This document shows positions 19,799 to 39,475 of a stretch of 64,000 bases of DNA, one piece after another. The stretch's first letter is position 1; every line of letters starts with the position of its first letter. Origin of the DNA: a virus; IMG/VR virus record IMGVR_UViG_3300034068_001120, positions 38,842 through 102,841 of that record; one strand, 5' to 3'. Under the pieces are notes generated by a model that did not search any database, was not told where the DNA came from, and saw only the letters and a list, made by a program, of their open reading frames with translations. Made by a program: the position numbers and the translations under genes.

Positions 19799-20098
19799 AG
19801 AAAACCTCCCTGAGTATGTATTCTTATTTTATTGATCGGAGGGTAATTCTCGGTTAAAAGGTATTCGAATATACTTCTGAATAACCTTAAAGAATCAATA
19901 GAATCTAACAATTTGAAACTACAGAAGTATGTAGTATGGCGTTTTTATAATAATAAGGCGGTTAATATATTTTTCCAAAATAAATATTCTTTCCGTGTCA
20001 CAATTTCCTCCTGGACCGCGGCAGGGGTTTCTGAGAACTATGACTTTTTAAGATATAACATATTGTTTGATAGTTTAATCCCGTGGAATTCTCCCACT

Positions 20099-20256
20099 GG
20101 GTCCAGGGGAGCGGGTAATTTATATTTTAATCGGATCTCGGATAACATATTATTCAGTCGGACTCTCACCGGCCAAGGGTCCCTGGCAAAGTTCACGGGG
20201 TCCAGGGGAACGCGTAAATAATATTTTAATCGGCTCTGACTTAACATATTAATCGG
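20099..20256 (+). repeat. imperfect direct repeat with 99-bp period in a non-coding region
   Basis: GGGTCCAGGGGA...ATATTTTAATCGG...TAACATATT starting at 20099 and 20198. Confidence 0.75.
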
Positions 20257-20409
20257 ATTAGATTTCGCGTGCGCCGCGCCAGCGGGTCCGGCCCAGTGTG
20301 GCGAACTATGACGCAGAACCAAAATATAAAATAAAAATCCCCCAACGGACGGGGGTTCGTCGGGGGACAGATGTCGGAGCGGTGAAACGCGCGACCTGTT
20401 ATGTAGACT

Positions 20410-20813: not shown

Positions 20814-21140
20814 TTATATAATATTCTGTGCAGATTTCATTCCTTTAACATTAGGTGAACCGGCCTTGCGTCCTCGCTTGTTGTCGTTCACCGTCAAAGT
20901 ACTGACATCCACATTCAGTTCAGGAATCAGGTAGTAGCCTCGTCCTGCTCGTCGATTCTGTGTAATTGCGATCCAAGCAGGAATAGCAACATAGACAGAG
21001 TTCTCCAAGACTTCCACCAAGTCTTTGCGTGACACCTGACACTCGTTGAGTACTGTCAGGCTATTACGATTGACTTGAAGAAAGGTGATGAAGTCCACCT
21101 GACCTTGTGTATAAGTTGAAGACATAATTGAATTAGACAT
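20814..21140 (-). CDS. stand-alone homolog of the N-terminal domain of the MoxR ATPase
   Basis: IPAWI....RRAGRGYYLIPEL here vs VPAWI...RKQGRGIYSVPEL in the ATPase. Confidence 0.65.
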   Translation of the reverse strand: MSNSIMSSTYTQGQVDFITFLQVNRNSLTVLNECQVSRKDLVEVLENSVYVAIPAWIAITQNRRAGRGYYLIPELNVDVSTLTVNDNKRGRKAGSPNVKGMKSAQNII

Positions 21141-21695: not shown

Positions 21696-22973
21696 TTAGA
21701 TTGGACAGATTGTTGGAGAAACACTAGACGGAACTACGGCAGGAGCAGGAGATCCTTCGGCAGGACGCATTTGAGTATCGGCATCCACCTTGGTGTAGAA
21801 CTCCATAAAGGATTGCTTTGTATCCTCGTCGAAGCGAGACACACATCGTTCAATGGCAGTCATCTTGTCTCCGAAGATTGAGAAGCCAAACACAATGTCT
21901 CGCAGTCGGCGGGTCGTGATGATGTCAGACACAACATTCTGCTTGAATGACTTGCGAATAATGTCTGCCCAATTCACCAAGTTCACAATGAATGCAGAGT
22001 CATCGACTCCAACCGACTCGGCATACTTGGTGAGAATCTTGTTCTCGGTTGCAATGCCTGCATAATCCTGCTCGTAAGTAAAGCGGAAGCGTTCCAAGAA
22101 GGCTTCGTTCATTTGGTTTGTGCCAATGAATCTGCCGTCAGAACATCCCTTGCCTTTGGTGTTGGCAGTTGCGACAACGGTGAATCCTGCAACAGGTCTG
22201 ACAAACATTCCAATCTTTGGAATAAACTTTCCCTTGCCTTCCAAGATACTTTGAAGACACATAATGAGATGAGTTCCCAAGTCCACTTCGTCGAGAAGAA
22301 GAACAGCACCTCGTTGCATTGCAACAAGAGCAGGTCCAGGACAGAATACAGTTTCGCCATTCTGCAATCTGAATCCACCGATCAATTCATCTTCGTCGGT
22401 CTGTGCAGTAAGATTCACACGAATACATTCTCGATTCAGTTGAGCGCAAACTTGCTCAACCATTGTGGTCTTGCCATTACCTGACAAGCCTGTGATGAAG
22501 ATTGGACAGAACGAACCTGACTTCACAATCTTCTTGATCTCATTGTGATATCCCCACGGAATATAATTATCATCTTCAAGAGGAATAAAAGTATTGCCGA
22601 TATCTGTTTGTGATGCAGTCTTGATAAGACTTGCGGTTGTGGTGGTGGTGCTGTTGGTGGTGGTTGGTTTCATTGGTGTAATGGTTTCTGTTGTTGTGGG
22701 TGTGATGATGGCAGGAGTAGATACTTTGTTGCGGTTGCGAGTGTTTGGAATCACGGTGATGTCTGTGTCTTTGGCAAACAATTCAGGAACAGAATAAATT
22801 CCTCTGCCTTGCTTGCGATCTTCTGACATAATCCAAGCAGGAACGATTGAGTATCCTGCTTTGCAAGCAATGGTGTTGAGCAGACTGAACTCAAACATAT
22901 CGGTTGGTTGGGTGGGAAGGAATGGTCGGGCAGATTTCACGAAGAGGAATTGTGTGGTGGTGAGTGTGTGCAT
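21696..22973 (-). CDS. MoxR/CobS-like AAA+ ATPase
   Basis: Walker A GLSGNGKT, DELIGG, Walker B LLLDEVD, ATANTKG, NEAFLERF, TTRRL; own TTGACA/TATACT promoter and SD before MHTL. Confidence 0.93.
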   Translation of the reverse strand: MHTLTTTQFLFVKSARPFLPTQPTDMFEFSLLNTIACKAGYSIVPAWIMSEDRKQGRGIYSVPELFAKDTDITVIPNTRNRNKVSTPAIITPTTTETITPMKPTTTNSTTTTTASLIKTASQTDIGNTFIPLEDDNYIPWGYHNEIKKIVKSGSFCPIFITGLSGNGKTTMVEQVCAQLNRECIRVNLTAQTDEDELIGGFRLQNGETVFCPGPALVAMQRGAVLLLDEVDLGTHLIMCLQSILEGKGKFIPKIGMFVRPVAGFTVVATANTKGKGCSDGRFIGTNQMNEAFLERFRFTYEQDYAGIATENKILTKYAESVGVDDSAFIVNLVNWADIIRKSFKQNVVSDIITTRRLRDIVFGFSIFGDKMTAIERCVSRFDEDTKQSFMEFYTKVDADTQMRPAEGSPAPAVVPSSVSPTICPI

Positions 22974-23050
22974 TGTGTCCTTTGTTATATAAAGTATATG
23001 TCGTAAATGGGGGTTGTCAAATAATGCGGTCAATTTTTCAAAGATTTATT

Positions 23051-25207
23051 TTATGTTCCAAGAGTCTCGCCGATCAGGGTGGCAACCGATTTGAGTGATC
23101 CAATTGCGGATTGATTGGCAATGAATGCCTTCTGCAATTCTGTTTTGGACTTTGCCGTGTTCATATTCTTTGACACAGTTTCCAACATACCTTGAGCAGA
23201 ATAACCAATCTCTCCGTTCTGTTGACGAGCAATACGATTCTGATCAACAACGATTGCAGTATCAAATCCGTCAACTGCACATCGAACGAATCCATCTCGT
23301 TTCCAATTACAATTCGGAAGTTCTGTTGCGCCTTTGATTTGATGAGCAGGAGATCCTTTCGACCAATGCAACTTAATCCAATGAATTGCTGTTCCTGTTC
23401 GCTTTCGGATAATGTCACAGGCAATCCACACAGAAGTAGATTGAACTGTAAGAGTCTTGTCCAATTCTTCAATGTTATATTTAAGTCCTGTCACAGGATC
23501 AGAAATAATAATGTTGCTGTGTCTGTGTCGATTTGAACCATCGGAATTCTTTCTGTCACTTGGAAGAAAGAATCCATCACAAGAATCTCCGTCAGTCAAG
23601 ACAACCAAGTGAGTGGACTGAAGATTATTCTTTGCCTTGAACTCCTCAATAGTTTCCACAATTTCAATCAATGCCGAAGTGGTTGGAGTTCCACTCAAAT
23701 GATATTGATTATGCTTTGCACAATTATCAATGTCCTGCCAATTCCACAGAATACTCTTTCCCTTTTCATACTCGGCATTTGTCATCTTGGATGACAACCA
23801 ATTCAGAAGATGAATGGGATGCATTTTCACATTGTCCTTGTCGTATTTTCTATCCGTTCGACTCGACAAATCTTCTCCGCTTGAGTTGCTAAAATCATTT
23901 GGAGTCCAAGTATGATCAGAGAATGCAAAGACTTCAAATGGAATTCCACTTCGTCGGCAAAAGTCTGTGAGAATAATAAGTTGTCCAATGGTTGATCGCA
24001 TAATTCCCTGCATTGAACCCGACCAATCCAACAGAATAATAATGCCGTGATTCTTTCCTTTGGCAATCTTTACAGTTCTGCGAAAGACATCATCAGACCA
24101 ACGATAAGAATTCATTCTCAAAGTATCAAGCGCACCTGTCTTTGCAACAGAAGAACGATGAAACAAGTCCGCAGCTTGTTTTCTTGCAAAAGCCTGTGAC
24201 ATTGTTCTGCTTGCATCAGTATAATCTTTCACCTTGATTGGAGTGAGAACTTTCTGCAAATCCAAATTGTTTGGTTTGGATGCAATAATCAAATCAACAT
24301 CTTTCAGAATCATATTGTAAGTCACAATCACATTTGGATGCTTTGGTGGAAGTGTGCAAAGATAATGATTGTCCATTGGACTTGTTTTAGCAGTGCTTGC
24401 CATTTTTTCAATTGCCTGTTCCATCATCTTGTTTGTTGATGGAGTTGGCAATTGTTGCTGTTGGTGTTGCTGTTGTGGTTTCTGCTGTGAAACTTTAGAT
24501 TCTGACGATTCTTTGGAAGAAGATTCACCTTCTTCTCCTTCGCCTTCGCCTTCTCCTGCTTGTTGTTCTGCCGATGGATCATTCTCCATCTCCACAGGAT
24601 GATTCTGTCCCTGTGATTTGCAGAATTTAATAATTTTCACCGCAAGATCAACAACATTCTGAAATGATTGTGTTCGTTCCATCAGCGGAATAAACTGCGA
24701 TTCAGCGGAAGAAAAAGGAATCACAACATTAGAATGAATGCCCAATTTGAAGTGAAGATTCAACCGATCTGCAAAGCAAGCAGTCGGGAATGTGGAAGGC
24801 TTTCCAAAGAATTCCTGTGCAACAAAGTATTCATAAGCCAAGTAGAAATCTCGTTTCAAGCCTTGAAACTTGTTCTTGATAAGTCTTTCAATTCTTGCAT
24901 CTTCCACAATATTCAAATATGATTTGGCTTGTTCTGTGGAACATCCTGTTTGCTTTGCAATAAAATCCATTCCATCCACCCATTCTTTGGCAGGAGTCCA
25001 CAAAGCGTGTCCGACTTCGTGTCCAACCAACATATCATATGTTGATTCTGAAGCAGTCTCCCACAGAGGAAGAAAGAGTGTTCGTGTTTTAAGATTAAAC
25101 ATTGCAGTCGGAATCTTTTCGTGGAGAATTGTAATGTTCTCGGATGCGAGAAGTTTCGCAAGAGTAGACTTGTTTCGGACGATTGGTTGTTGTGGTGTTG
25201 TTGACAT
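23051..25207 (-). CDS. VWA-domain partner protein with N-terminal HExxH (CobT-like)
   Basis: GHEVGHALWT, NIVEDARIE, MIDAS DWSGSM, GTPT, VLTDG; leaderless start after TTGACT-N16-CATACT. Confidence 0.9.
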   Translation of the reverse strand: MSTTPQQPIVRNKSTLAKLLASENITILHEKIPTAMFNLKTRTLFLPLWETASESTYDMLVGHEVGHALWTPAKEWVDGMDFIAKQTGCSTEQAKSYLNIVEDARIERLIKNKFQGLKRDFYLAYEYFVAQEFFGKPSTFPTACFADRLNLHFKLGIHSNVVIPFSSAESQFIPLMERTQSFQNVVDLAVKIIKFCKSQGQNHPVEMENDPSAEQQAGEGEGEGEEGESSSKESSESKVSQQKPQQQHQQQQLPTPSTNKMMEQAIEKMASTAKTSPMDNHYLCTLPPKHPNVIVTYNMILKDVDLIIASKPNNLDLQKVLTPIKVKDYTDASRTMSQAFARKQAADLFHRSSVAKTGALDTLRMNSYRWSDDVFRRTVKIAKGKNHGIIILLDWSGSMQGIMRSTIGQLIILTDFCRRSGIPFEVFAFSDHTWTPNDFSNSSGEDLSSRTDRKYDKDNVKMHPIHLLNWLSSKMTNAEYEKGKSILWNWQDIDNCAKHNQYHLSGTPTTSALIEIVETIEEFKAKNNLQSTHLVVLTDGDSCDGFFLPSDRKNSDGSNRHRHSNIIISDPVTGLKYNIEELDKTLTVQSTSVWIACDIIRKRTGTAIHWIKLHWSKGSPAHQIKGATELPNCNWKRDGFVRCAVDGFDTAIVVDQNRIARQQNGEIGYSAQGMLETVSKNMNTAKSKTELQKAFIANQSAIGSLKSVATLIGETLGT

Positions 25208-25401
25208 ATGCAAAGTATGCCACCAATTCAAGCAAAGTCAAATAATGTGATCAATTTTCTAAAGATTTATTTCAAAGGTTATCGGACGCAGGACCCGATC
25301 AAATCCCGCCCAGTCCGATAACAGGCCGGGCTATGACGAACTATGACGAATTCGAACTATGACGGCAGGCAATAAAAAAACCCCCTTGCGGGGGTCCTGG
25401 A

Positions 25402-25602
25402 TCATGCGGTCTTCTCTATAAAGAAGTCCGTTTCATCATAATCCATTGTGACACCATCCTGCCAAGTAAGACCTGAAGTGTCTCCGTTGAATTGACATTC
25501 AACATCGTAGTGCGCTCCATTCTTCTTGACCAGATACATTGGATTTTTCCAACATACTGTGAGTTTGTTATCAACTGCGGTTTTGATTTCATCAAGTGTC
25601 AT
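25402..25602 (-). CDS. cassette gene, hypothetical (66 aa)
   Basis: MTLDEIKTAVD after AAAAGGA SD; ends at a terminator. Confidence 0.75.
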   Translation of the reverse strand: MTLDEIKTAVDNKLTVCWKNPMYLVKKNGAHYDVECQFNGDTSGLTWQDGVTMDYDETDFFIEKTA

Positions 25603-25768
25603 TGTAGTCCTTTTGTTGTGGTGATCTGTACCCTTGAAGTATACACCAAGAATCAACGAATGCAAATAATCAGCACAATATTTGAAAGATTTTATTATCG
25701 GACACGGCGGATTCAAACTATGACGGCAGAAAACAAAAAAACCCTTTCCCGAAGGAAAGGGTCTCTGA

Positions 25769-26125
25769 TCAAAACTCGTCGCTGTCAGGATAATCGAATC
25801 CGAAATCGCCTTCGCTTTCGGTGATTTCCTCAAGAATGCGAGATTCGCACTCTCGTTCAATCTGATCTGCGAGATGTTCGCAGATTTCCGTGATTGCGGG
25901 ATTGCTTTTGTCGAACGACCATTCGGCAATCACTTCTCCGTCCTCATTGAACTGCATCCACGAGTCGATTTGAACACCTTGAATGGCAAATTCGTGTCCT
26001 TTTTCTGTTCCGAACTCGTGATCGAAACTTGTATCAACCTTTTCATAAAGAATTGTGCAAATTGCTGTGTAAAATGACTCTCCGACTTCAATTTCTTCTG
26101 CTTCAAATGTAATTTCTGATTTCAT
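25769..26125 (-). CDS. highly acidic protein, candidate DNA mimic
   Basis: 118 aa from MKSEITF; hand count 33 D/E vs 6 K/R. Confidence 0.6.
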   Translation of the reverse strand: MKSEITFEAEEIEVGESFYTAICTILYEKVDTSFDHEFGTEKGHEFAIQGVQIDSWMQFNEDGEVIAEWSFDKSNPAITEICEHLADQIERECESRILEEITESEGDFGFDYPDSDEF

Positions 26126-26144
26126 TTTCGTTTTCTTTCTTGGG

Positions 26145-26540
26145 TTAGTTGTTGTTTTTGCCGTCGAGTTCAATATCTTCGAGAATTTGAGCAATCATTG
26201 TGTCTGCCACATCGGAAAGAGGTGCTCGTTCCTCGTTCTGATCGTGAATTCCTGCATTTCTTGCAAGAACAAGACGAAGCATTCGCAAAGCCGAGATGGT
26301 TTGATCAAATTCCACCATTGCAAGTTTGAATTTCGTGATATCCTTGAGCATATCAGGAATTCGCTCTGAATCATCTTCAGTTTGAAACTCTCGAAGTGAT
26401 TCTTCAAGATCTTTCAGCGATTGAGTAACAGGGTTTGAGAGAATGGCATTGAATGATCCGCACAATTGGCTTCCGATCTGGTCGATGATTTCGACAAGAC
26501 GGCGGGGGTTGAGATCGAGATTGTTAGTGTTGTTGGACAT
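26145..26540 (-). CDS. cassette gene, helical hypothetical, leaderless
   Basis: TATACT-CTTATT-ATG. Confidence 0.7.
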   Translation of the reverse strand: MSNNTNNLDLNPRRLVEIIDQIGSQLCGSFNAILSNPVTQSLKDLEESLREFQTEDDSERIPDMLKDITKFKLAMVEFDQTISALRMLRLVLARNAGIHDQNEERAPLSDVADTMIAQILEDIELDGKNNN

Positions 26541-26772
26541 AATAAGAGTATACACCGAGAATTGAACAATGCAAATTATGTGGTCGATTTTCCAAAGATT
26601 TTATTATCGGACTCTGAGGGCTATGACGAACTATGACGGCAGGCAATAAAAAAAGACTGGGTTCGCACCCAGTCCAAAGTCCTGCGGACTTGTTATTTGT
26701 TATTTTCCGAATGTGGAGAGGTAACAGGGTCGGCGGGGAAACGCTCCACCGCCGACCCTCCAACCACAACGG

Positions 26773-27072
26773 TCAGACTGCAATACCTCGCTTGACGAGA
26801 TCTTTCGACATCGCCACAAGAACTGCGTGGTTTTCTGTGAGAGCCAGAATCAACGCATCGTGCGTCTTGCTCTCGTCAATGGCTTCTTGAGCCTGACGAG
26901 TAAATGATTCTGCCTTTGCCACGAACTTGTCTTTGTTGAATTGCGCCTTCGCAATTCCCATCGCCGCATCGTCGATTGATTGTGCGAGAGGAGATCGGCG
27001 TTCTTGACGAACACTTCCGTCTTTGTTGAGTTTGCTTGATTGGGTCGTACCCGATGTTGTGTTGTTGGACAT
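26773..27072 (-). CDS. cassette gene, coiled-coil hypothetical, leaderless
   Basis: TATACT-CTGTAT-ATG. Confidence 0.7.
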   Translation of the reverse strand: MSNNTTSGTTQSSKLNKDGSVRQERRSPLAQSIDDAAMGIAKAQFNKDKFVAKAESFTRQAQEAIDESKTHDALILALTENHAVLVAMSKDLVKRGIAV

Positions 27073-27234
27073 ATACAGAGTATACACCAAGAATTAAACA
27101 ATGCAAATTATAGGATCAATTTTCTAAAGATTATTATTATCGGACTCTACGGGCTATGACGAACTATGACGGCAAGGCAAAAAAAAAACTTCCCCGAAGG
27201 GAAGTTCCGACGCTGTTGCGTCTGCCCCGAAGGG

Positions 27235-27639
27235 TTATGCGATTGCGATATCCAATTCCTTGAAGGTCTGCATTCCTTCACATTGCGTCATCGTCGACTT
27301 TCCGATGATGCCCATAATTCCTTGAACGGAATCGTTCATGGACTTTCGGACTTCCTTGCGTTCTGAATCCGACATTGCCATTGCTTCCTCGGCGATGGCA
27401 ACCAATGCCGAACGCTGAAATCCTGCACGCTGTGCAAGGATGGACAGAAGTGTCCACGGACAGGCTGACTGCGGAACAGACTTCTCGAATGCTTCGCCTC
27501 GACTGTACGAGAAGTCTACGCAGAAGGTGACCGTTCCTGCCAATTCTGATCCTGAAGGAATCGTATACAGTTCCTTGACTGCACTCTTGATTGCTGTTAC
27601 GAACTCTGGGGATTGAACGATGGTGGTTGTTGTTGTCAT
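27235..27639 (-). CDS. cassette gene, hypothetical, leaderless
   Basis: TATACT-CTGTAT-ATG; ends just before a terminator. Confidence 0.72.
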   Translation of the reverse strand: MTTTTTIVQSPEFVTAIKSAVKELYTIPSGSELAGTVTFCVDFSYSRGEAFEKSVPQSACPWTLLSILAQRAGFQRSALVAIAEEAMAMSDSERKEVRKSMNDSVQGIMGIIGKSTMTQCEGMQTFKELDIAIA

Positions 27640-27831
27640 ATACAGAGTATACTTCCAAAATCAACCTTGTCAAATTATATGGCAAAGAATTAAGAATTAT
27701 TATTATCGGACTCTGGGGCTATGACGAACTATGACGGATTCGAACTATGACGGCGAACCGAAAAAAAAATTTCTGGAATAAAAACCCCTCGGCACGATGC
27801 CGAGGGGCTATGCAACCAACTGACGATTGTG

Positions 27832-28695
27832 TTAGACTCGCACTGCGAATCCGTTTGCGGTCGCATATGCCATCGATTCATCGTAGGCTCGATGCGATGT
27901 CGGTCCCTTCCAAGACAATCCGACTACCGAATTCTTCGGATCAAGAAAACGCAGATCGGTAGCCGTTCCATCGATTACGGTATATCCGTTCCAAGTCTTC
28001 GGCAATTCGGTAGCCGATTCAATACCGAACACTACGGCAACATTGTAGCCTGATTCAAGGATACTCAACGCATCGGATTCATTATCCTCGCTTCGTGAGA
28101 ATGTAAGATGATAATTCGATGGAGTTTTTCCGACTCTCGATGCGATTTTCGTATAATCGTAAAACTGAACGGTAGAGTATCGTTCGAACAATTCGCTCCA
28201 TACCTTTTCCCAAAGAATGTCACTGAATGCGTTCATACGAACCGATGGCGTAACTCCACGCTTGGCGCAACGCTTGACGAACGATGCTATCTCTCTATCA
28301 ATCGCTTGTAGTGCCATTAGCGCAGTCGATCCTCCTCCAAACAATTCTCTAGTTCTTGCAATTCTTGCGGAGCGTACCGAATTGAGCACGCTTGGATTAT
28401 TAGCGCATCCAACTCCCAATACTGAATGTCCCGCATTGATACCTACGCATCCCTGCCTACAGAATCCAGCCTTTGGGCATATATCGATACCGCTTGTGTT
28501 AGCAGGGGAAAGACTCAATGAGAGCGTAGCGTGCCCTTGCGCCGAACCTAGGAAAAGTTTCGGATTACTATCTTCCTTCGACATTATCGACCTCTTGCGA
28601 GTACCGATAGGCGCACCTTTGCGCTCGTATTCTGCGATGGATTCTCGCAGATTAGAGTAGGATAGAACAGAGGATGGTAGTTGTGTTAGTTGCAT
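27832..28695 (-). CDS. GP88-family protein, leaderless
   Basis: ICPKAGFCRQGC, RMNAFSDI.W, FYDYTK, NYHLTFSRSE, NVAVVF, VIDG...DLRFLDP...VVGL..KG; TATAAT-ATGAGT-ATG. Confidence 0.82.
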   Translation of the reverse strand: MQLTQLPSSVLSYSNLRESIAEYERKGAPIGTRKRSIMSKEDSNPKLFLGSAQGHATLSLSLSPANTSGIDICPKAGFCRQGCVGINAGHSVLGVGCANNPSVLNSVRSARIARTRELFGGGSTALMALQAIDREIASFVKRCAKRGVTPSVRMNAFSDILWEKVWSELFERYSTVQFYDYTKIASRVGKTPSNYHLTFSRSEDNESDALSILESGYNVAVVFGIESATELPKTWNGYTVIDGTATDLRFLDPKNSVVGLSWKGPTSHRAYDESMAYATANGFAVRV

Positions 28696-28841
28696 ACTCA
28701 TATTATACATCGTAAATCGATGATGTCAAATAAAGGGTACGATTATTTGAATATTTTTTATTATCGGACGCTGGTCATAGTTCGCTAGTCATAGTACCGC
28801 AGATCGACTCCCGCCACCACCACAAAAACTATGACGAATAC

Positions 28842-28919
28842 AAAAAAAGAGGATGCCTCTGCGGTGGCATCCTCCTTGTCGCTCGCGTGTGCGACGGTTT
28901 ATTTGTTTTCCTTCCTGAC
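28842..28919 (-). ncRNA. probable ~75-nt small RNA filling a whole cassette
   Basis: Perfect TTGACA-N16-TATACT promoter and a strong terminator enclose ~75 nt with no meaningful ORF; four AGGA motifs and a GUCGC/GCGAC hairpin. Confidence 0.65.
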
Positions 28920-29045
28920 AACTAGAGTATACAACAGATTCGGACAATGTCAAATAAAAGGTTAAAGAATTATAATATTGTATTATCGGACTCTCGTGAA
29001 CTATGACGAAACCAAAAAGAAAAGACCCCCTTGCGGGGGTCCTGG

Positions 29046-29318
29046 TCAGGAGTCTCTCTTTGCGACTCCTGCTTTGAATCCTTCCCTCCAAGCCTCATCG
29101 AGTGCATCTGCACTCGTTGGGCGATTGTTCACCAACCAATTCCTGCAATCTTGCAGTTCGGCTTCCAAATCCGAGATTTGAAATTGATAATCCTTCAACT
29201 GCTCGAGCGATTCACGAGTTTGAATTTGTTGCGCCAATTGGGATCTCTCCCATCGCAAGACATCCAACCGTTGTTTTTTCGATTGAAATAGTATGGTCAT
29301 TTGTTGTAATACGGTCAT
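29046..29318 (-). CDS. cassette gene, coiled-coil hypothetical
   Basis: ATG after structured leader and AAAGGA SD. Confidence 0.7.
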   Translation of the reverse strand: MTVLQQMTILFQSKKQRLDVLRWERSQLAQQIQTRESLEQLKDYQFQISDLEAELQDCRNWLVNNRPTSADALDEAWREGFKAGVAKRDS

Positions 29319-29389
29319 TCTAGTTCCTTTGTGTCCCGCAGGGACAGATGCAATCGTAAGGGATTGAAACATTCAATCCTCATCGACAC
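29319..29389 (-). promoter_or_regulatory. structured 5' leader, copy A
   Basis: GUCGAUGAGGAUUGAAUGUUUCAAUCCCUUACGAU...UGUCCCUGCGGGACA-SD. Confidence 0.8.
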
Positions 29390-29523
29390 CTACAATATAC
29401 AACGGATTTGGGCAATGTCAAATAAAAGGGTAAAGAATTCTAATATTGTATTATCGGTCAAAGGGGGCTATAACAAACTATGACGAAACCAAAAAGAAAA
29501 GACCCCCTTGCGGGGGTCCTGAA

Positions 29524-29871
29524 TCACTTGGCGTAGATGTCTGCGCCAGATCGAATCCCCCATCCTCTCCTCGCCACTGTTTGGTGGCGAGTGGTGGTTC
29601 TCGAGTACTTGTCATTGGGAATCACGCATCTTGGGCACTCTCCGTCAAGATAGACCCACATAATTGGTGTTCCGTAACTATAAACAACATATTGAATGTT
29701 GTCTGTGGAAAGGAACAATCGAGCCATTTCTGGGGAAAGTCGACCCGTCCCTCTACCCACTCGAACAGTACTCGATCCGTACTCTCCGAATGAGAGTGAT
29801 CCAGTGTGAGTCTTTCCGTTTTCAAATTTGCTGATTGCCACAAACGCATTATGAAGTGAGATATTAGCCAT
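29524..29871 (-). CDS. cassette gene, YSYGTPI...KYSxTTxRHQ phage early protein
   Basis: Motif pattern recalled from phage early hypotheticals; SD AAAGGA. Confidence 0.75.
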   Translation of the reverse strand: MANISLHNAFVAISKFENGKTHTGSLSFGEYGSSTVRVGRGTGRLSPEMARLFLSTDNIQYVVYSYGTPIMWVYLDGECPRCVIPNDKYSRTTTRHQTVARRGWGIRSGADIYAK

Positions 29872-29939
29872 TCTAGTTCCTTTGACCCGCAGGGTCAGGT
29901 GCATCATAAGGGATTGAAACATTCAATCCTCATTGACAA
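29872..29939 (-). promoter_or_regulatory. structured 5' leader, copy B
   Basis: Same fold as copy A, with GUCA/UGAU and UGACCC/GGGUCA compensatory changes. Confidence 0.8.
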
Positions 29940-30075
29940 CCACAATATACTACCGATTTCGCCGATGTCAAATAAAGAGGTCGATTTTTCAAAGAATATT
30001 ATTATCGGTCAAATAGGGCTATGACGAACTATGACGAAACCAAAAAGAAAAGACCCCCTTGCGGGGGTCCTGGGG

Positions 30076-30474
30076 TTAATCGAAGTGTGTCCCGCAGTGA
30101 CCGCAATGCTCACTTTGACGGGTGCACCCGCAGTGGGGGCACTCGTACCAACCGTCGCCGTACTCTCGTCGAGGCTCGACCTCGACCTCGGACTCCTCCA
30201 TCACTAATGATGGAGACTCGATGATGCCCCTTTCTCGAAGCATCCGCTCGAGCACGATGAACTCGTCCATCACCCTCGACTTGATGGCTGCTGAAAAAAC
30301 ACTTTTTTCCCGATCATCCAGTGCCTCCACGAGATTCGTGGGGGCGGTCATTTGAATGACCGCAGAGAGTCTCATCATTTGGATGTGGATCGGCAATTTG
30401 CCGATCCACTCAACTGCGCCGACTGCATTGAGATGCGCCCTCAATGCCATACCTTCAGGGGTTGATTCATTCAT
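30076..30474 (-). CDS. cassette gene with C-terminal Zn ribbon
   Basis: WYECPHCG...HCGHCG. Confidence 0.7.
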   Translation of the reverse strand: MNESTPEGMALRAHLNAVGAVEWIGKLPIHIQMMRLSAVIQMTAPTNLVEALDDREKSVFSAAIKSRVMDEFIVLERMLRERGIIESPSLVMEESEVEVEPRREYGDGWYECPHCGCTRQSEHCGHCGTHFD

Positions 30475-30547
30475 CGTAAGATCCAATCCGACCCGCAGGG
30501 TCAGGTGCATCGTAGGCAACTTGAAACATTCAAGCCCGCCTCGACAC
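30475..30547 (-). promoter_or_regulatory. structured 5' leader, copy C
   Basis: GUCGAGGCGGGCUUGAAUGUUUCAAGUUGCCUACGAU variant. Confidence 0.8.
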
Positions 30548-30707
30548 CAACAATATACACTCAATTTCGCCGATGTCAAATAAAAGGGTAAAGAATTACA
30601 AGATTCTTTGTTATCGGACTCTAGCGTCATAGTTCGCTGCAACGACCCAGCCTCCACCAAACTATGACGAACACAAAAAAGAAAAGACCCCTTTCGGGGT
30701 CCTGATA

Positions 30708-30899
30708 TCAAGCGTACCACTTCTTTACTTTCTTGAACTCTTCGACAAGATCCATCTCGCCGAGATGGATCAATCGAGCCAACAGAATATGATCCGCCAT
30801 TCTGTGTGCTTGCTCGATGTCGCCCTCACAGGAGGAGCGAGAGATTTGGCGCATCTGCGCCAATCCTGTTTCTTTCGTCATTTCTTGAATTTCGTCCAT
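30708..30899 (-). CDS. cassette gene, small hypothetical
   Basis: 63 aa after leader copy D; D.E.AH..AD...KWYA pattern. Confidence 0.72.
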   Translation of the reverse strand: MDEIQEMTKETGLAQMRQISRSSCEGDIEQAHRMADHILLARLIHLGEMDLVEEFKKVKKWYA

Positions 30900-30967
30900 T
30901 CTAATTCCTTTGTCCCGCAGGGACATTTGCATCGTAAGGGATTGAAACATTCAATCCTCATCGACAC
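30900..30967 (-). promoter_or_regulatory. structured 5' leader, copy D
   Basis: Near-identical to copy A. Confidence 0.8.
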
Positions 30968-31103
30968 CCACAATATACACCAAGAATCGCCGATGTCAAA
31001 TAAAAGGGTAAAGAATTCCAAGATTCTTTGTTATCGGTCAAATAGGGCTATGACGAACTATGACGAACACAAAAAAGAAAAGACCCCTTTCGGGGTCCTG
31101 GGA

Positions 31104-31514
31104 TCAGGACTTGACCCCGACTTGCGCCCAATCGGAATTGGGTGGGTATACCCACCCGCAGTGGCGGAAACTCGAGGTCTTCGTTGTTCTTCCGTCAGGA
31201 AGAACCTCCTCCACAGAGACTCGCTCTGTGAAAGAGAAGCAAACTTCCCATCCTTCTGCCTCGAGCAGGGATTGGAGCGGTCCCATCAAATACGGGGCTC
31301 CGCCGATCATGACGAAGTCAAAATCTTCGCAATCCGCATTCATCCGAAGCAGTCGGACGATGCTTTCGCATCGCGTTGCGATTTCGATGCGTGAAGGGGG
31401 GGTGGCGAATGTTAACAATTCGCACAATAACTTGCGCCCCTCGGGGAGAAAATCTACCACTCCATCCTCAATTTGTTCCTTTGTGGCGAGATGTTGGGTG
31501 AGGTTCGGTATCAT
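31104..31514 (-). CDS. Csx20-like CARF-related protein, candidate cyclic oligoadenylate ring nuclease
   Basis: H..T.EQ.ED, LP, PP, VMIGG, TERVSVE...DG...K.S.FRH pattern resembles Csx20 (from memory, not searched). Confidence 0.55.
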   Translation of the reverse strand: MIPNLTQHLATKEQIEDGVVDFLPEGRKLLCELLTFATPPSRIEIATRCESIVRLLRMNADCEDFDFVMIGGAPYLMGPLQSLLEAEGWEVCFSFTERVSVEEVLPDGRTTKTSSFRHCGWVYPPNSDWAQVGVKS

Positions 31515-31585
31515 AAAGACTCCTTTTGACCCGCAGGGTCATTTGCATCGTAGGCAACTTGAAACATTCAAGCCCGCCTCGACAC
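31515..31585 (-). promoter_or_regulatory. structured 5' leader, copy E
   Basis: Copy C-type first hairpin, UGACCC-UGC-GGGUCA, AAGGAG SD. Confidence 0.8.
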
Positions 31586-31689
31586 CAACAATATACATCA
31601 AGAATTGACGATGTCAAATAAAAGGGTAAAGAATTCAAAGATTCTTTGTTATCGGCCAAAATGGGCTATGACGAACTATGACGAATACA

Positions 31690-31905
31690 AAAAGAAACCA
31701 TTCTCTCCGTGATCGTTTCGGAGAGAATGGTTGTCAAGTGTCGGCGGTCCTGAGTCGATGCGAGCGTGCGGGTGGAAGGCAGGGGAGGGGTGTCAAACGC
31801 AGGTGGGGTGCTTCCGTGATCAAACTTGGCACTTCAAGCGTGTTGATTTTCTGCAAATCCAAGCCGAACGAGGCATCAAGCGAGCCAAACCGAATCACTT
31901 GATTC
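31690..31905 (-). other. first cassette transcript: ncRNA or ~55-aa peptide
   Basis: Promoter at 31912-39 and terminator at ~31690-31732; only a GTG ORF (31734..31907) with no SD; C-rich tract. Confidence 0.45.
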
Positions 31906-32211
31906 ACCTACAGTATACACCGAAAAACGCCGATGTCAAGTAAAGAGCCTGATTATTTCAAAGAATATTATTATCGGACCTCACCCGCACCTATCGGAGT
32001 ACAGTGTTATCGGCCCCTTCCCCACCCAGCCCTAGTGGGTCTAGCAGATCGAGCAATCCCGTGGGGAGGAAATTAAAATATTCACCCCCCGTCAATTCTG
32101 TACAACATTTATCGAACCTGCTTTTGAAAATTTTTTTTGCGTAAAAATTTCACGCCAATATCCTTTTCAAATATTCTTCATATACTCTTTTTCCAAGAAA
32201 TAATCAGTTAG

Positions 32212-32219
32212 TATAAATA
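32212..32219 (+). promoter_or_regulatory. T4-type late promoter TATAAATA
   Basis: Exact match 12 nt before ATG 32232. Confidence 0.72.
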
Positions 32220-32231
32220 TTAACGAATTCC

Positions 32232-32678
32232 ATGAAATCATTCATCCAATATCTAAAAGAAGATTTACGTAAGTGGTTTAGTAAAACTGATCCAGACGGC
32301 GATTGGAAACGAATAAACTCAAAGGGGGAAGCCATTGGACCTTGTGCAGCGGCTCCAGGAGAACCTAAGCCTAAATGTATGTCACGAGCGAAACGTGCTG
32401 GATTAACTAAAAAACAAAGAGCTGCAGCAGTTCTTGCCAAAAGACGAAATGATCCAAATCCTAATAGAACAGGATCTCCTATAAATGTTTCAAATTATGG
32501 AATGGGAAAAATAAGTGAAGAAATTCTACAAGAAAAAAATATACCAACCTCACCTGAAAAATGGAGTCGAGCCAAAGCACTGGCAAGATCTAAATTCAAG
32601 GTTTATCCTTCGGCATATGCAAATGGTTGGGCTGCTAAAAAATATAAAGCCATGGGTGGCGGATGGGAAACTGAATGA
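32232..32678 (+). CDS. basic late protein (DUF5872-like C-terminus) with capsid-targeting-like N-terminus
   Basis: MKSFIQYLKE; KFKVYPSAYANGW..KKYK..GGGW. Confidence 0.7.
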   Translation: MKSFIQYLKEDLRKWFSKTDPDGDWKRINSKGEAIGPCAAAPGEPKPKCMSRAKRAGLTKKQRAAAVLAKRRNDPNPNRTGSPINVSNYGMGKISEEILQEKNIPTSPEKWSRAKALARSKFKVYPSAYANGWAAKKYKAMGGGWETE

Positions 32679-32968
32679 AGTCATTTCTAGAACATTTAAC
32701 CGAAACTGCTGCATGGACCAGAAAAGCAGGAAAGAATCCAACAGGAGGCTTAAATGCAGCGGGTGTGGCTTCTTATAGAGCCGCAAATCCTGGCAGCAAA
32801 TTAAAAATGGCCGTGACGACTCCTCCTTCTAAATTGAAGAAGGGATCCAAAGCCGCAAAGCGAAGAAAATCTTTCTGCGCCAGAATGAGTGGTATGCGAG
32901 GTGCAATGAAAGATGCAAAGGGTAGACCAACACGCAAGGCTCTGGCTTTGCGCAAGTGGAACTGCTAG
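32675..32968 (+). CDS. DUF6321-like basic protein with capsid-targeting-like N-terminus
   Basis: MKSFLEHLTE; AAWTRK.GKNP.GGLN...RRKSFCARM...LRKWNC. Confidence 0.75.
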   Translation: MKSFLEHLTETAAWTRKAGKNPTGGLNAAGVASYRAANPGSKLKMAVTTPPSKLKKGSKAAKRRKSFCARMSGMRGAMKDAKGRPTRKALALRKWNC

Positions 32969-37540: not shown

Positions 37541-39475
37541 ATGTCCCAATCCCGTGATCTACTTCCTACTCAATTTCAAACATTCATTCACTTATCAAGA
37601 TATTCCAGATGGTTGCACGAAGAAAATCGTAGAGAATCATGGACTGAAACTGTTAGTCGATATTTTGATTTCTTTGAAGCGCATTTAAAAGAAAACACAA
37701 AGTTCTCTTTGACCAAGGCTCTTCGAGCCGAATTGGAATCGGCTATTTTAAATCTTGAAGTTATGCCATCCATGCGCTGTTTGATGACAGCAGGAGAAGC
37801 ACTCACCAAATCAAATATTGCAGGATACAATTGTGCATACACTACAGTGAATCGTGTGCGAGCATTTGATGAGATTCTTTATGTTTTGCTGAATGGTACA
37901 GGAGTTGGATTTAGTATAGAACGCCAATATGTGGAACGACTTCCGACAATTGCAGAAGAGTTTTCTCAAAGCAATACTACTATCATTGTTGAAGATTCAA
38001 AAGGTGGATGGGCAAAGTCTTACAAAGAATTGATTTCACTGCTCATTGGTGGACAAATTCCAAAGTGGGATTTGAGTAAACTTCGTCCAGCGGGTGCAAG
38101 ACTAAAAACATTTGGTGGTCGTGCAAGTGGTCCTGCTCCACTTGATGAACTATTTCGTTTCACAATGGATTCTTTTAAACGAGCAGCAGGACGAAAATTA
38201 ACTTCAATTGAGTGTCATGATATTGTTTGCAAAATTGCAGAAGTAGTTGTGGTTGGTGGAGTTCGACGATCTGCACTGATTTCGCTGTCCAATCTCACAG
38301 ACGAAAAGATGCGAGATGCCAAGACAGGTGCATGGTGGAATGAGCATCCACAACGAGCACTTTCAAATAATTCTATTGCATATAAAGAAAAACCAGAGAT
38401 GGGCGTATTCATGGAAGAATGGATTTCTCTTTATAAATCCAAAAGCGGAGAACGAGGTATCTTCAATCGTGAGGCTGCAAAGAAAACGGTTGAAAAACTT
38501 GGAGATCGTCGTGATCCAAATTATGATTGGGGATGCAATCCATGTTCGGAAATTTTACTGAGAGATCGTGAGTTTTGCAATCTTTCTGAAGTAGTTGTTC
38601 GTGCAGAAGATACTGAAGAAACTCTAATGAGAAAGATTCGTATTGCTACAATTCTTGGAACATTCCAAGCATCTCTTACAAATTTTCCATATCTTTCAAG
38701 TGAATGGAAAAAGAATTGTGAAGAAGAAGCCTTGCTTGGAGTTTCTCTTACAGGAATTCTTGACAATAAGATATTGAGTAAAGTTTCTGTTGATACAAAG
38801 GCTCTTCTTACTCGTCTTCGTGAATCTGCAATTCTAGTAAACAAAGAGTTTGCAAAGCGGTTAGGCATCAATCCAGCAGCAGCAATTACTTGCACAAAAC
38901 CCAGCGGAACAGTTTCTACATTGGTAGATTCGGCAAGTGGTATTCATCCCCGACATGCCGAATATTATATTCGTACTGTTCGTGCAGATCGCAAAGATCC
39001 GTTGTGTCAACTAATGATTGATAAAGGATTTCCACACGAACAGTGTGTCACAAAGCCAGATTCTGTTACAGTATTTTCTTTTCCGATGCGAGCAATTGGA
39101 TCGGTTACTAGAAAAGATGTAAGTGCAATTGAGCATTTAGAATTGTGGTTAATGTATCAGCAATATTGGACAGAACACAAACCATCCATTACTGTGAGTG
39201 TTCGAGAACACGAATGGCTTGAGGTAGGTGCTTGGGTCTATAAAAACTTTGATGAAATTTCCGGAATTAGTTTTCTTCCATTTTCGGATCACACCTATCG
39301 TCAGGCTCCATTTCAGGATTGCACAAAGGAAGAATATGAAGCATTGGTCTCTCGCATTCCTGTGAATGTGGATTGGAGTGAACTTCAAAAGTACGAGAAA
39401 ACAGACAATACCACGGGTTCTCAAGAATTTGCTTGTAGTGGTGGATCATGCGAAATTGTGGATATTGTAAAATAA
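37541..39475 (+). CDS. nrdJ: class II (adenosylcobalamin) ribonucleotide reductase
   Basis: MPSMR, YNCAY, GGVRRSA, CNPCSEI, FCNLSE, KPSGT, C-terminal ACSGGSCE. Confidence 0.95.
   Translation: MSQSRDLLPTQFQTFIHLSRYSRWLHEENRRESWTETVSRYFDFFEAHLKENTKFSLTKALRAELESAILNLEVMPSMRCLMTAGEALTKSNIAGYNCAYTTVNRVRAFDEILYVLLNGTGVGFSIERQYVERLPTIAEEFSQSNTTIIVEDSKGGWAKSYKELISLLIGGQIPKWDLSKLRPAGARLKTFGGRASGPAPLDELFRFTMDSFKRAAGRKLTSIECHDIVCKIAEVVVVGGVRRSALISLSNLTDEKMRDAKTGAWWNEHPQRALSNNSIAYKEKPEMGVFMEEWISLYKSKSGERGIFNREAAKKTVEKLGDRRDPNYDWGCNPCSEILLRDREFCNLSEVVVRAEDTEETLMRKIRIATILGTFQASLTNFPYLSSEWKKNCEEEALLGVSLTGILDNKILSKVSVDTKALLTRLRESAILVNKEFAKRLGINPAAAITCTKPSGTVSTLVDSASGIHPRHAEYYIRTVRADRKDPLCQLMIDKGFPHEQCVTKPDSVTVFSFPMRAIGSVTRKDVSAIEHLELWLMYQQYWTEHKPSITVSVREHEWLEVGAWVYKNFDEISGISFLPFSDHTYRQAPFQDCTKEEYEALVSRIPVNVDWSELQKYEKTDNTTGSQEFACSGGSCEIVDIVK

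Follow-up and report, generated by a model that had tools for sequence, protein, structure and literature searches.

Thirteen copies of a composite junction bound small, probably early, cargo genes and RNAs in an uncultured T4-type lake phage

Why would a phage place closely similar non-coding DNA in front of one unrelated small gene after another, and does such DNA serve expression, gene exchange or both? The question is raised by a stretch of 64,000 nucleotides, hereafter the window (positions 38,842 to 102,841 of the IMG/VR virus record IMGVR_UViG_3300034068_001120). The record is a viral fragment of 102,841 bp with a completeness of 57% (CheckV), and its source is an uncultured T4-type lake phage, a myovirus; its T4 type shows in a gene for the baseplate hub (PF12322, E 2.2e-59) and in a match to a gp19-like tail tube. 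On the minus strand of the window, positions 25214-32013 hold an uninterrupted array of 13 copies of a composite junction, which bound 12 cassettes (nine with one gene, one with two genes and two with only an RNA); all genes in this stretch lie on the minus strand. The array is a promoter-early stem-loop (PeSL) array in the hyperplastic early-gene region of a T4-type phage. Taken as a whole, it is very probably best explained as a series of insulated early units of PeSL type, the cargo of which is exchanged through homology.

Alignment of the junctions gives a constant order of elements: a terminator, one to three ten-bp repeats, a spacer, the box CCGATAA, an AT-rich tract and a promoter. A preliminary description of this DNA had given the same order and had seen an array of self-contained cassettes with one shared junction; motif counts and the aligned junctions bear this out, as they do the claim that the junctions are richer than a promoter plus stem-loop. 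Its figure of about 12 units holds for the cassettes and has to be corrected to 13 for the junctions, and the contents correspond to what it had announced, one gene or RNA per cassette and two genes once. It had let the element end at the −10 box, whereas the conservation continues into a leader or a leaderless start. In the direction of transcription the array reads as follows (J, junction; C, protein-coding cargo; L, a locus found in metagenomes, see below).

J0, 31912-32013, minus strand: three CCGATA(A/G) boxes, AT-rich tract, TTGACA-N16-TATACT; upstream end of the array.
Cassette 1, 31690-31905, minus strand: GC-rich RNA of ~210 nt without a convincing open reading frame (ORF); folding free energy (dG) −71.6 kcal/mol, z −3.5.
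J1, 31590-31730, minus strand: terminator, two repeats, box, promoter; type B structured leader.
C2 (cassette 2), 31104-31514, minus strand: 136 aa, Csx20-like, candidate ring nuclease for cyclic tetra-adenylate (cA4).
J2, 30972-31099, minus strand: terminator, two repeats, box, promoter; type A leader.
C3 (cassette 3), 30708-30899, minus strand: 63 aa, ORFan.
J3, 30552-30703, minus strand: terminator, one direct and one inverted repeat 25 nt apart, box, promoter; type B leader.
C4 (cassette 4), 30076-30474, minus strand: 132 aa, C-terminal CxxC...CxxC cluster, ORFan.
J4, 29944-30071, minus strand: terminator, two repeats, box, promoter; type A leader.
C5 (cassette 5), 29524-29871, minus strand: 115 aa; homologue in L155, 65% identical.
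J5, 29394-29520, minus strand: terminator, two repeats (the second degenerate), box, promoter; type A leader.
C6 (cassette 6), 29046-29318, minus strand: 90 aa; the slot holds an unrelated 98-aa gene in L155.
J6, 28926-29043, minus strand: terminator, one repeat, box, promoter.
Cassette 7, 28846-28919, minus strand: GGA-rich RNA of ~75 nt, no ORF, 12-bp terminator; dG −28.8 kcal/mol, z −3.7.
J7, 28702-28877, minus strand: small-RNA terminator, one direct and two inverted repeats, box, perfect TTGACA-N16-TATAAT.
C8 (cassette 8), 27832-28695, minus strand: GP88 (Pfam, 3.6e-33; phrog_1617, 3.8e-52); leaderless ATG at 28695.
J8, 27646-27809, minus strand: terminator, three repeats, box, promoter; leaderless.
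C9 (cassette 9), 27235-27639, minus strand: 134 aa, ORFan, leaderless.
J9, 27079-27208, minus strand: terminator, two repeats, box, TTGCAT promoter; leaderless.
C10 (cassette 10), 26773-27072, minus strand: 99 aa, leaderless.
J10, 26547-26675, minus strand: terminator, two repeats (three in relatives), box, TTGCAT promoter; leaderless.
C11a, 26145-26540, minus strand: 131 aa; first of the two genes of cassette 11 (25769-26540).
C11b, 25769-26125, minus strand: 118 aa, acidic, isoelectric point (pI) 4.1; second gene of cassette 11.
J11, 25638-25766, minus strand: terminator, one repeat (three in L131), box, TTGCAT promoter; 35-nt leader with a Shine-Dalgarno (SD) sequence.
C12 (cassette 12), 25402-25602, minus strand: 66 aa; L131 has a 173-aa gene between J11 and C12.
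J12, 25214-25398, minus strand: terminator, three repeats, extra inverted box, box, TTGACT-N16-CATACT; leaderless.
Peptidase gene, 23051-25207, minus strand: conserved peptidase/vWA (CobT-like) gene driven by J12, the last junction; first non-cassette gene downstream of the array.

The junctions are 110-200 nt long and up to 91% identical to one another. Their repeat unit, CGTCATAG(TT/CC), occurs in one to three copies with a 10-bp period, the first copy lying 3-12 nt past the T-tract, and a spacer of 7-9 nt leads from the repeats to the CCGATAA box. From the box to the −35 hexamer the AT-rich tract measures 29-31 nt in 12 of the 13 junctions and 37 nt in J12. The promoter is TTGACA/TTGCAT-N16-TATAyT, with a spacing of 16 nt between −35 and −10 in all 13 copies; twelve array promoters meet a strict sigma-70-like consensus, and none is found on the plus strand, J12 (TTGACT-N16-CATACT) being excepted by its −10 hexamer. 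A GC-rich hairpin followed by a T-tract (dG −16 to −28 kcal/mol) stands 60-110 nt upstream of the −35 hexamer in 12 of 13 cases. The remaining one is J0, the first junction, in which three CCGATA boxes and a promoter are present and the terminator and the 10-bp repeat are missing.

This arrangement is not random. At no more than one mismatch, the window has 19 occurrences of CGTCATAGTT where 3.5 are expected, a number reached in none of 100 shuffles, and CCGATAAYAA occurs 23 times against 7.8 expected. The minus strand of the 102.8-kb record contains the composite of CCGATAA, 25-40 nt and TTGnnn 13 times, always at window positions 25285-31977. Consensus scans of 25000-32200 return 38 promoter-like sites (10.5 expected) and 19 terminator-like sites (7.3 expected). 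Besides the 13 in the array, the window has a handful of sigma-70-like promoters (at 23020, 18252, 4875, 1769 and 676), which carry neither the repeat nor the CCGATAA box.

Whether the junctions also serve gene exchange can be judged from relatives. A metagenome scan with the double repeat yielded 101 loci, of which six (L098, L131, L134, L151, L155 and L165) hold the full junction; the six lie on JGI metagenome contigs, five of them on contigs Ga0114969, Ga0114970, Ga0114974 and Ga0164292. Where they can be aligned, five are 90-99.8% identical to the window and L155 is ~73% identical. Order is kept for C8-C9 in L098 and for C10-C11a-C11b in L131 and L165, while four differences in cargo content are seen in L131, L155 and L165. 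In L131, the 173-aa gene between J11 and C12 is flanked by a ~25-nt imperfect repeat (ribosome site plus ATGACA), of which the window holds one hybrid copy. In both L131 and L165 a hydrophobic ORF of 70 aa follows C10; here the window has lost 215 bp between two CTCTC pentamers and retains a stub, the last codons of the deleted ORF, at ~26700-26720 on the minus strand. Upstream of J9, L165 carries an unrelated 61-aa gene and not C9; the homology begins at the T-tract, and the terminator of the 61-aa gene is a copy of the one preceding J10. Finally, in L155 a 98-aa gene replaces C6, the homology ending just past the SD sequence (AAAGGA) and returning at the terminator, and the next junction is a hybrid in which a J6-type terminator is joined to a J3-type repeat region inside the 10-mer. 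The record contains no homologue of these four alternative genes. Cassette content thus differs among these close relatives, contrary to the identical content and order that would have spoken against the preliminary description, and three of the four differences have end points within junction sequence (the T-tract, the inside of the 10-bp repeat, and the ribosome site/ATG).

Such differences might also arise if the junction were a purely regulatory repeat, that is, one strong promoter-terminator unit that was duplicated and kept for expression, the flux being ordinary illegitimate recombination in non-coding DNA. The loss of the 70-aa ORF by 5-bp microhomology agrees with this, as do purifying selection on promoter, terminator, repeats and box and the conserved order of C8-C9 and C10-C11. 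However, the other three events end in sequence that the junctions have in common, and all four cargo differences were met in less than 10 kb of compared sequence with an identity of 90-96%. Moreover, terminator, upstream-tract and leader types each sort the junctions of the window into different groups, a discordance that is a signature of exchange between junctions, and the mosaic of sub-modules, within this genome as well as in L155, requires such exchange. On this evidence a purely regulatory origin appears improbable.

The preliminary description had proposed an integron-like mechanism and had also likened the array to PeSLs. In an integron-like platform the repeats, the box or both would be sites at which a dedicated phage recombinase or nuclease captures and excises cassettes site-specifically. 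Repeats and box are indeed conserved well above the neighbouring DNA, the repeats of J3 and J7 are arranged in direct and inverted orientation around GC-rich spacers of 25-31 nt, the hybrid junction of L155 is joined inside a repeat, and the cargo is of foreign composition, with GC content at third codon positions (GC3) dropping along the array. On the other hand, searches of the 102.8 kb of this 57%-complete record gave no tyrosine integrase (PF00589), serine resolvase or GIY-YIG nuclease; each cassette has its own promoter and terminator, contrary to promoterless integron cassettes; and the imperfect-palindrome hairpin characteristic of attC is absent from the repeats. Furthermore, the breakpoints fall at three places in the junction and once outside it, and crossovers scattered in this way fit homologous recombination and not a single site-specific point. 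On this evidence, drawn from an incomplete record, an integron-like mechanism is not supported and is very unlikely. The likeness to PeSLs is supported by the anatomy and by the indels at junctions, and the array is filed as a PeSL array because its anatomy, its spread crossovers and the lack of an integrase, resolvase or GIY-YIG match in the available sequence agree with published PeSLs.

The repeats and the box do not belong to PeSLs as hitherto described, and both are under purifying selection of considerable strength: orthologous junctions show 2 differences in 166 nt of repeat, as compared with ~9 in 47 nt (~19%) of the adjoining spacer and 8-11% in coding DNA. Most likely, a protein of the phage or of its host would bind them and act on all 13 units jointly. 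The repeats appear to track terminators and the box promoters, because repeats are also found behind the T-tracts at 20313 and 18852, with no adjoining junction promoter or CCGATAA box (hairpin folding for these two sites covers 20313 only), and because the terminator-less J0 has boxes and no repeats. Alternatively, the two motifs may have no DNA-binding function and be hitch-hiking remnants, or may act through DNA shape in the context of an extended UP element or of the terminator. Their absence from the other sigma-70-like promoters of the phage would agree with this, as would a number of repeats that ranges from one to three even between orthologous junctions and the lack of a candidate binding protein. 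Yet mere remnants would hardly be expected to show so few changes next to so variable a spacer, to keep the box 29-31 nt from the −35 hexamer in 12 of 13 junctions, or to follow T-tracts away from any junction promoter or box; we regard the absence of a binding function as possible and rather unlikely. More speculatively, repeats and box could together form a dedicated "address" confined to cassette boundaries, where a phage protein with more than a regulatory role would pause replication or transcription, or nick the DNA, and so create recombination hot spots, allowing integrase-free, targeted capture of genes for anti-defence cargo; this idea is improbable.

We take the likeness of the repeats to a Pho-box or OmpR-type site to be a loose resemblance only (a GTCATA core and a 10-bp instead of an 11-bp period), and no OmpR-type winged-helix gene is present in the record. 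CCGATAA was considered as the upstream element of a second promoter and rejected, because its distance to the nearest −10-like hexamer is inconsistent. The 20-mer double repeat has no match across 185,579 species genomes, and in full-text literature the 10-mer occurs in primers only. About 20 contigs that share the 10-mer (Ga0056131/2, Ga0209788 and Ga0209681) were discarded as phage kin, the context being different and largely non-coding, with no coding similarity; the loci L109 and L111 are 10-mer satellites. At L081, L083, L087, L099, L107 and some 15 further loci of the Ga0056131/2, Ga0209788 and Ga0209681 contigs, mostly non-coding and without relation to the phage in what they encode, a conserved element of three or four tandem CGTCATAGTT-like units with an ACGAACTATAGTTCG palindrome recurs. 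In the window itself, two 61-nt direct repeats (20095-20155 and 20194-20254; 82% identical and 99 nt apart) are situated just downstream of a terminator and of the single CGTCATAGTT copy at 20313 (minus-strand context 20320-20040); their role may be that of paired small RNAs or of sites of regulation.

Beyond the −10 box the array falls into two sub-families of units, with a structured leader in its upstream half and leaderless starts in its downstream half. J1-J5 run on into a two-hairpin leader of ~70 nt that also bears a ribosome site; among only five copies, 3 of its 23 predicted pairs show compensatory double changes; a search of Rfam over 25000-32300 gave nothing at E ≤ 1. In J7-J10 and J12, by contrast, the ATG lies exactly 6 nt past the −10 hexamer (window 28695, 27639, 27072, 26540 and 25207, minus strand), at the expected transcription start and without an SD sequence. 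Counted over the 13 units, six starts have SD and ATG, five are leaderless and two units are RNA-only. At 1/64 per promoter, a rough hand estimate, five such starts in 13 would occur by chance with a probability of ~1e-6. The leaderless ATG is followed by CA-rich codons, as in ATG-ACAACAACAACC and ATG-TCCAACAACAC. Leaderless mRNAs with downstream CA-rich enhancers are known from lambda cI transcribed from PRM, and an effect of CA repeats has been reported for E. coli. The ORFs concerned are real genes, since they differ from their orthologues mainly at synonymous positions: C8 and C9 show 53 synonymous and 14 non-synonymous, and 26 synonymous and 2 non-synonymous, codon changes relative to L098, and C10 shows 14 synonymous and 3 non-synonymous changes relative to its orthologue in the relatives. 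For these five adjacent early genes the position of the ATG predicts leaderless mRNAs. At a sixth promoter, in the 4875 region, an ATG is found 5 nt past the −10 box.

How, then, might the units work? The intrinsic terminator would halt the upstream transcript, and the near-consensus host sigma-70 promoter with its AT-rich upstream tract would restart transcription ~110 nt further on. With a terminator and a promoter of its own, each cargo gene or small RNA would therefore be an insulated message right after infection. Translation would begin in the upstream half of the array from the ribosome site of the 70-nt two-hairpin leader, and in the downstream half on a leaderless mRNA in which the ATG is the transcription start and a CA-rich stretch follows. 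A protein bound to repeats and box could switch the early promoters in common, or could strengthen termination as a roadblock. Junctions of up to 91% identity are a substrate for homologous recombination, and the recombination system of the phage could delete, insert and swap cargo at them while leaving regulation intact.

Several points weigh against this account. Early timing, termination efficiency and start sites are read from consensus matches alone. No recombination protein of the RecA/UvsX type was found in the 57%-complete record, so that the recombination pathway is supposed by analogy with T4. Part of the flux bypasses the junctions, since the loss of the 70-aa ORF used a 5-bp microhomology outside any junction. 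The contigs of the relatives are 1-3.4 kb long, and the comparison therefore covers short-range order. Finally, repeat number varies between orthologous junctions (1 vs 3, 2 vs 3), which argues against a strict stoichiometric binding site, and no candidate DNA-binding protein for repeats or box was identified in the record.

What do the units carry? Ten of the 11 cargo proteins match no family above the curated cut-off (Pfam, PHROGs, NCBIfam), C8 being the exception. With a GC content of 0.40-0.54 and a GC3 of 0.40-0.64, the cargo is more GC-rich than the 67 ORFs of at least 150 aa in the record (means 0.39 and 0.27, respectively), as had been remarked, with respect to the late genes, from the letters alone, and a GC3 so far over the record mean fits acquisition from elsewhere. 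GC3 is 0.58-0.64 in C2-C4, 0.43-0.53 in C5-C10, 0.40-0.42 in C11-C12 and 0.35 in the peptidase gene. By GC3 the promoter-distal end of the array is the most foreign-looking. The RNA of cassette 1 ends in a terminator hairpin of 14 bp at 31698-31730.

A hint of an anti-defence function comes from C2. It aligns over residues 5-120 of 136 with positions 4-120 of the 124 in the NCBIfam model CAS_Csx20 (NF040559), at E 7.5e-7 and 29.6 bits, under the curated cut-off of 70. Its AlphaFold2 (AF2) model is of good quality (predicted local distance difference test, pLDDT, 90.6). In a wide structural search (VIA) the model resembled SAVED/CARF chains (8tl0, 7rwk, 9eyi, 8bao and 7bdv; Z 5-6.4), and it scored no lower against Asp/Glu racemases (Z up to 6.9); Foldseek returned nothing at E ≤ 0.001. 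Members of the family (PF27247 in precomputed Pfam) are common on viral contigs, where they number 173 IMG/VR loci with an identity of 38-50%, and further relatives, P0122 and P0123, are encoded on ENA contigs; the family may be a widespread viral ring nuclease. One phage with a C2 homologue, IMGVR_UViG_3300028820_000059 (L227:1000-4900), has five repeated strong promoters with a conserved upstream module of their own, ATTAAGGAATTTTAATCAAAAAAAC, and additionally a palindrome, GTTCCACGTGGAAC, in two of the promoter copies, an independent PeSL-like set.

The preliminary description had read the cargo as anti-defence genes, naming a Csx20-like and an Ocr-like protein. The former designation has moderate support from the sub-threshold, full-length NCBIfam match and the CARF/SAVED-like model. 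The latter, given to C11b, goes back to acidity alone (pI 4.1, 33 Asp and Glu among 118 residues): C11b has no match in Pfam or PHROGs, its Atlas neighbours are unnamed viral clusters, and its AF2 model (pLDDT 42) is too poor for a structure search. The other cargo genes are ORFans, except for C8 with its GP88 match. For the anti-defence reading there is thus a single, moderately supported candidate, C2.

The surroundings of the array were also compared. Homologues of the peptidase gene number 5430; tblastn detects it in 464 records, mostly of T4-like cyanophages with some pelagiphages, at <32% identity, and relatives P0001-P0004, encoded on ENA contigs, are 85-93% identical. A megablast search with the array found no match among 50,697 phage records; no close relative was found in IMG/VR by scans with the double repeat, the peptidase protein, C8 or the leader motif; and the six nearest IMG/VR relatives that a profile recovers for the peptidase (35-39% identity) lack such an array in front of that gene. 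The notion that the array was inserted at a divergent promoter conserved in distant relatives was withdrawn, because in these relatives the homologue of the window neighbour at 32675-32968 sits 5-8 kb downstream of the peptidase. Elsewhere in the window, the N-terminal part of an AAA_5 ATPase (21696-22973, minus strand) and an ORF of 108 aa (20814-21140, minus strand) have a motif in common (PAWI..., GRG-Y, PEL), which suggests a duplicated small domain.

PeSLs are a proposed route by which T4-type phages shuffle host-adaptation genes, and they have been detailed in three cultured phage pairs only. With the present array an uncultured phage of T4 type is added to these, and the metagenome variants make the shuffling directly visible. 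Three features are added, namely the repeat-plus-box module, the structured leader and a run of predicted leaderless early mRNAs; the first is a possible common operator or roadblock for the whole early-gene set. The cargo amounts to a list of candidate host-takeover and anti-defence genes, including a candidate viral ring nuclease directed against cyclic-oligoadenylate signalling.

These features can be set beside known systems. As in the leaderless mRNA of lambda cI, the start codon is at the (here predicted) transcription start and CA-rich codons come next; the difference is that the arrangement recurs in five neighbouring early genes, with predicted 5′ ends. According to Hoikkala et al. 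(bioRxiv 10.1101/2024.09.24.614671), Csx20 is a proven cA4 ring nuclease and occurs in 5 of 28,114 phage genomes. C2 is like the Csx20 of type III CRISPR loci in its full-length NCBIfam alignment and in a model resembling CARF/SAVED; it differs in a score under the cut-off (29.6 vs 70 bits), in an activity that is predicted, and in its many relatives on viral contigs. Like an integron, the array lines up single-gene units of foreign composition in one direction, with a repeated boundary and a content that varies among close relatives. It departs from them in that each unit has its own promoter and terminator in place of a shared Pc, in that the boundaries are 10-bp direct repeats and a 7-bp box and not folded palindromes of attC type, and in that crossovers occur at three positions, with no integrase found in the available sequence.

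The closest counterpart remains the PeSL, in which a stem-loop immediately precedes an AT-rich tract, followed by an early promoter of sigma-70-like type, an SD sequence and an ATG; PeSLs cluster between ORFans in hyperplastic regions and lie at indels between close phage pairs (PMC4122927; PMC2839356). They have been described for RB49/phi1, T4/PST and KVP40/nt-1 (Arbiol et al. 2010, PMC2839356; Comeau et al. 2014, PMC4122927), crossovers in PeSL mini-circles have been placed in the interval from the −10 box to the SD/ATG (PMC2839356; PMC4122927), circles or deletions joined in junction homology have been shown for RB49/phi1 in the course of infection, and PeSLs of such density were not seen in cyanophage S-PM2 (PMC4503421). 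Our array is alike in its stem-loop/terminator, AT-rich tract and sigma-70-type early promoter (hairpin in 12 of 13 units, promoter in 13 of 13), in its many copies between small ORFans of a hyperplastic T4-type region, in the insertions, deletions and replacements at units among close relatives, and in crossovers near the −10 box, SD and ATG. It differs in its 13 uninterrupted copies, in two cassettes with only a small RNA, and in coming from an uncultured phage and host. New with respect to the PeSL description are two further conserved elements, the one to three ten-bp direct repeats and the CCGATAA box at a fixed distance, together with a covarying two-hairpin leader of 70 nt in five units and leaderless starts in five others.

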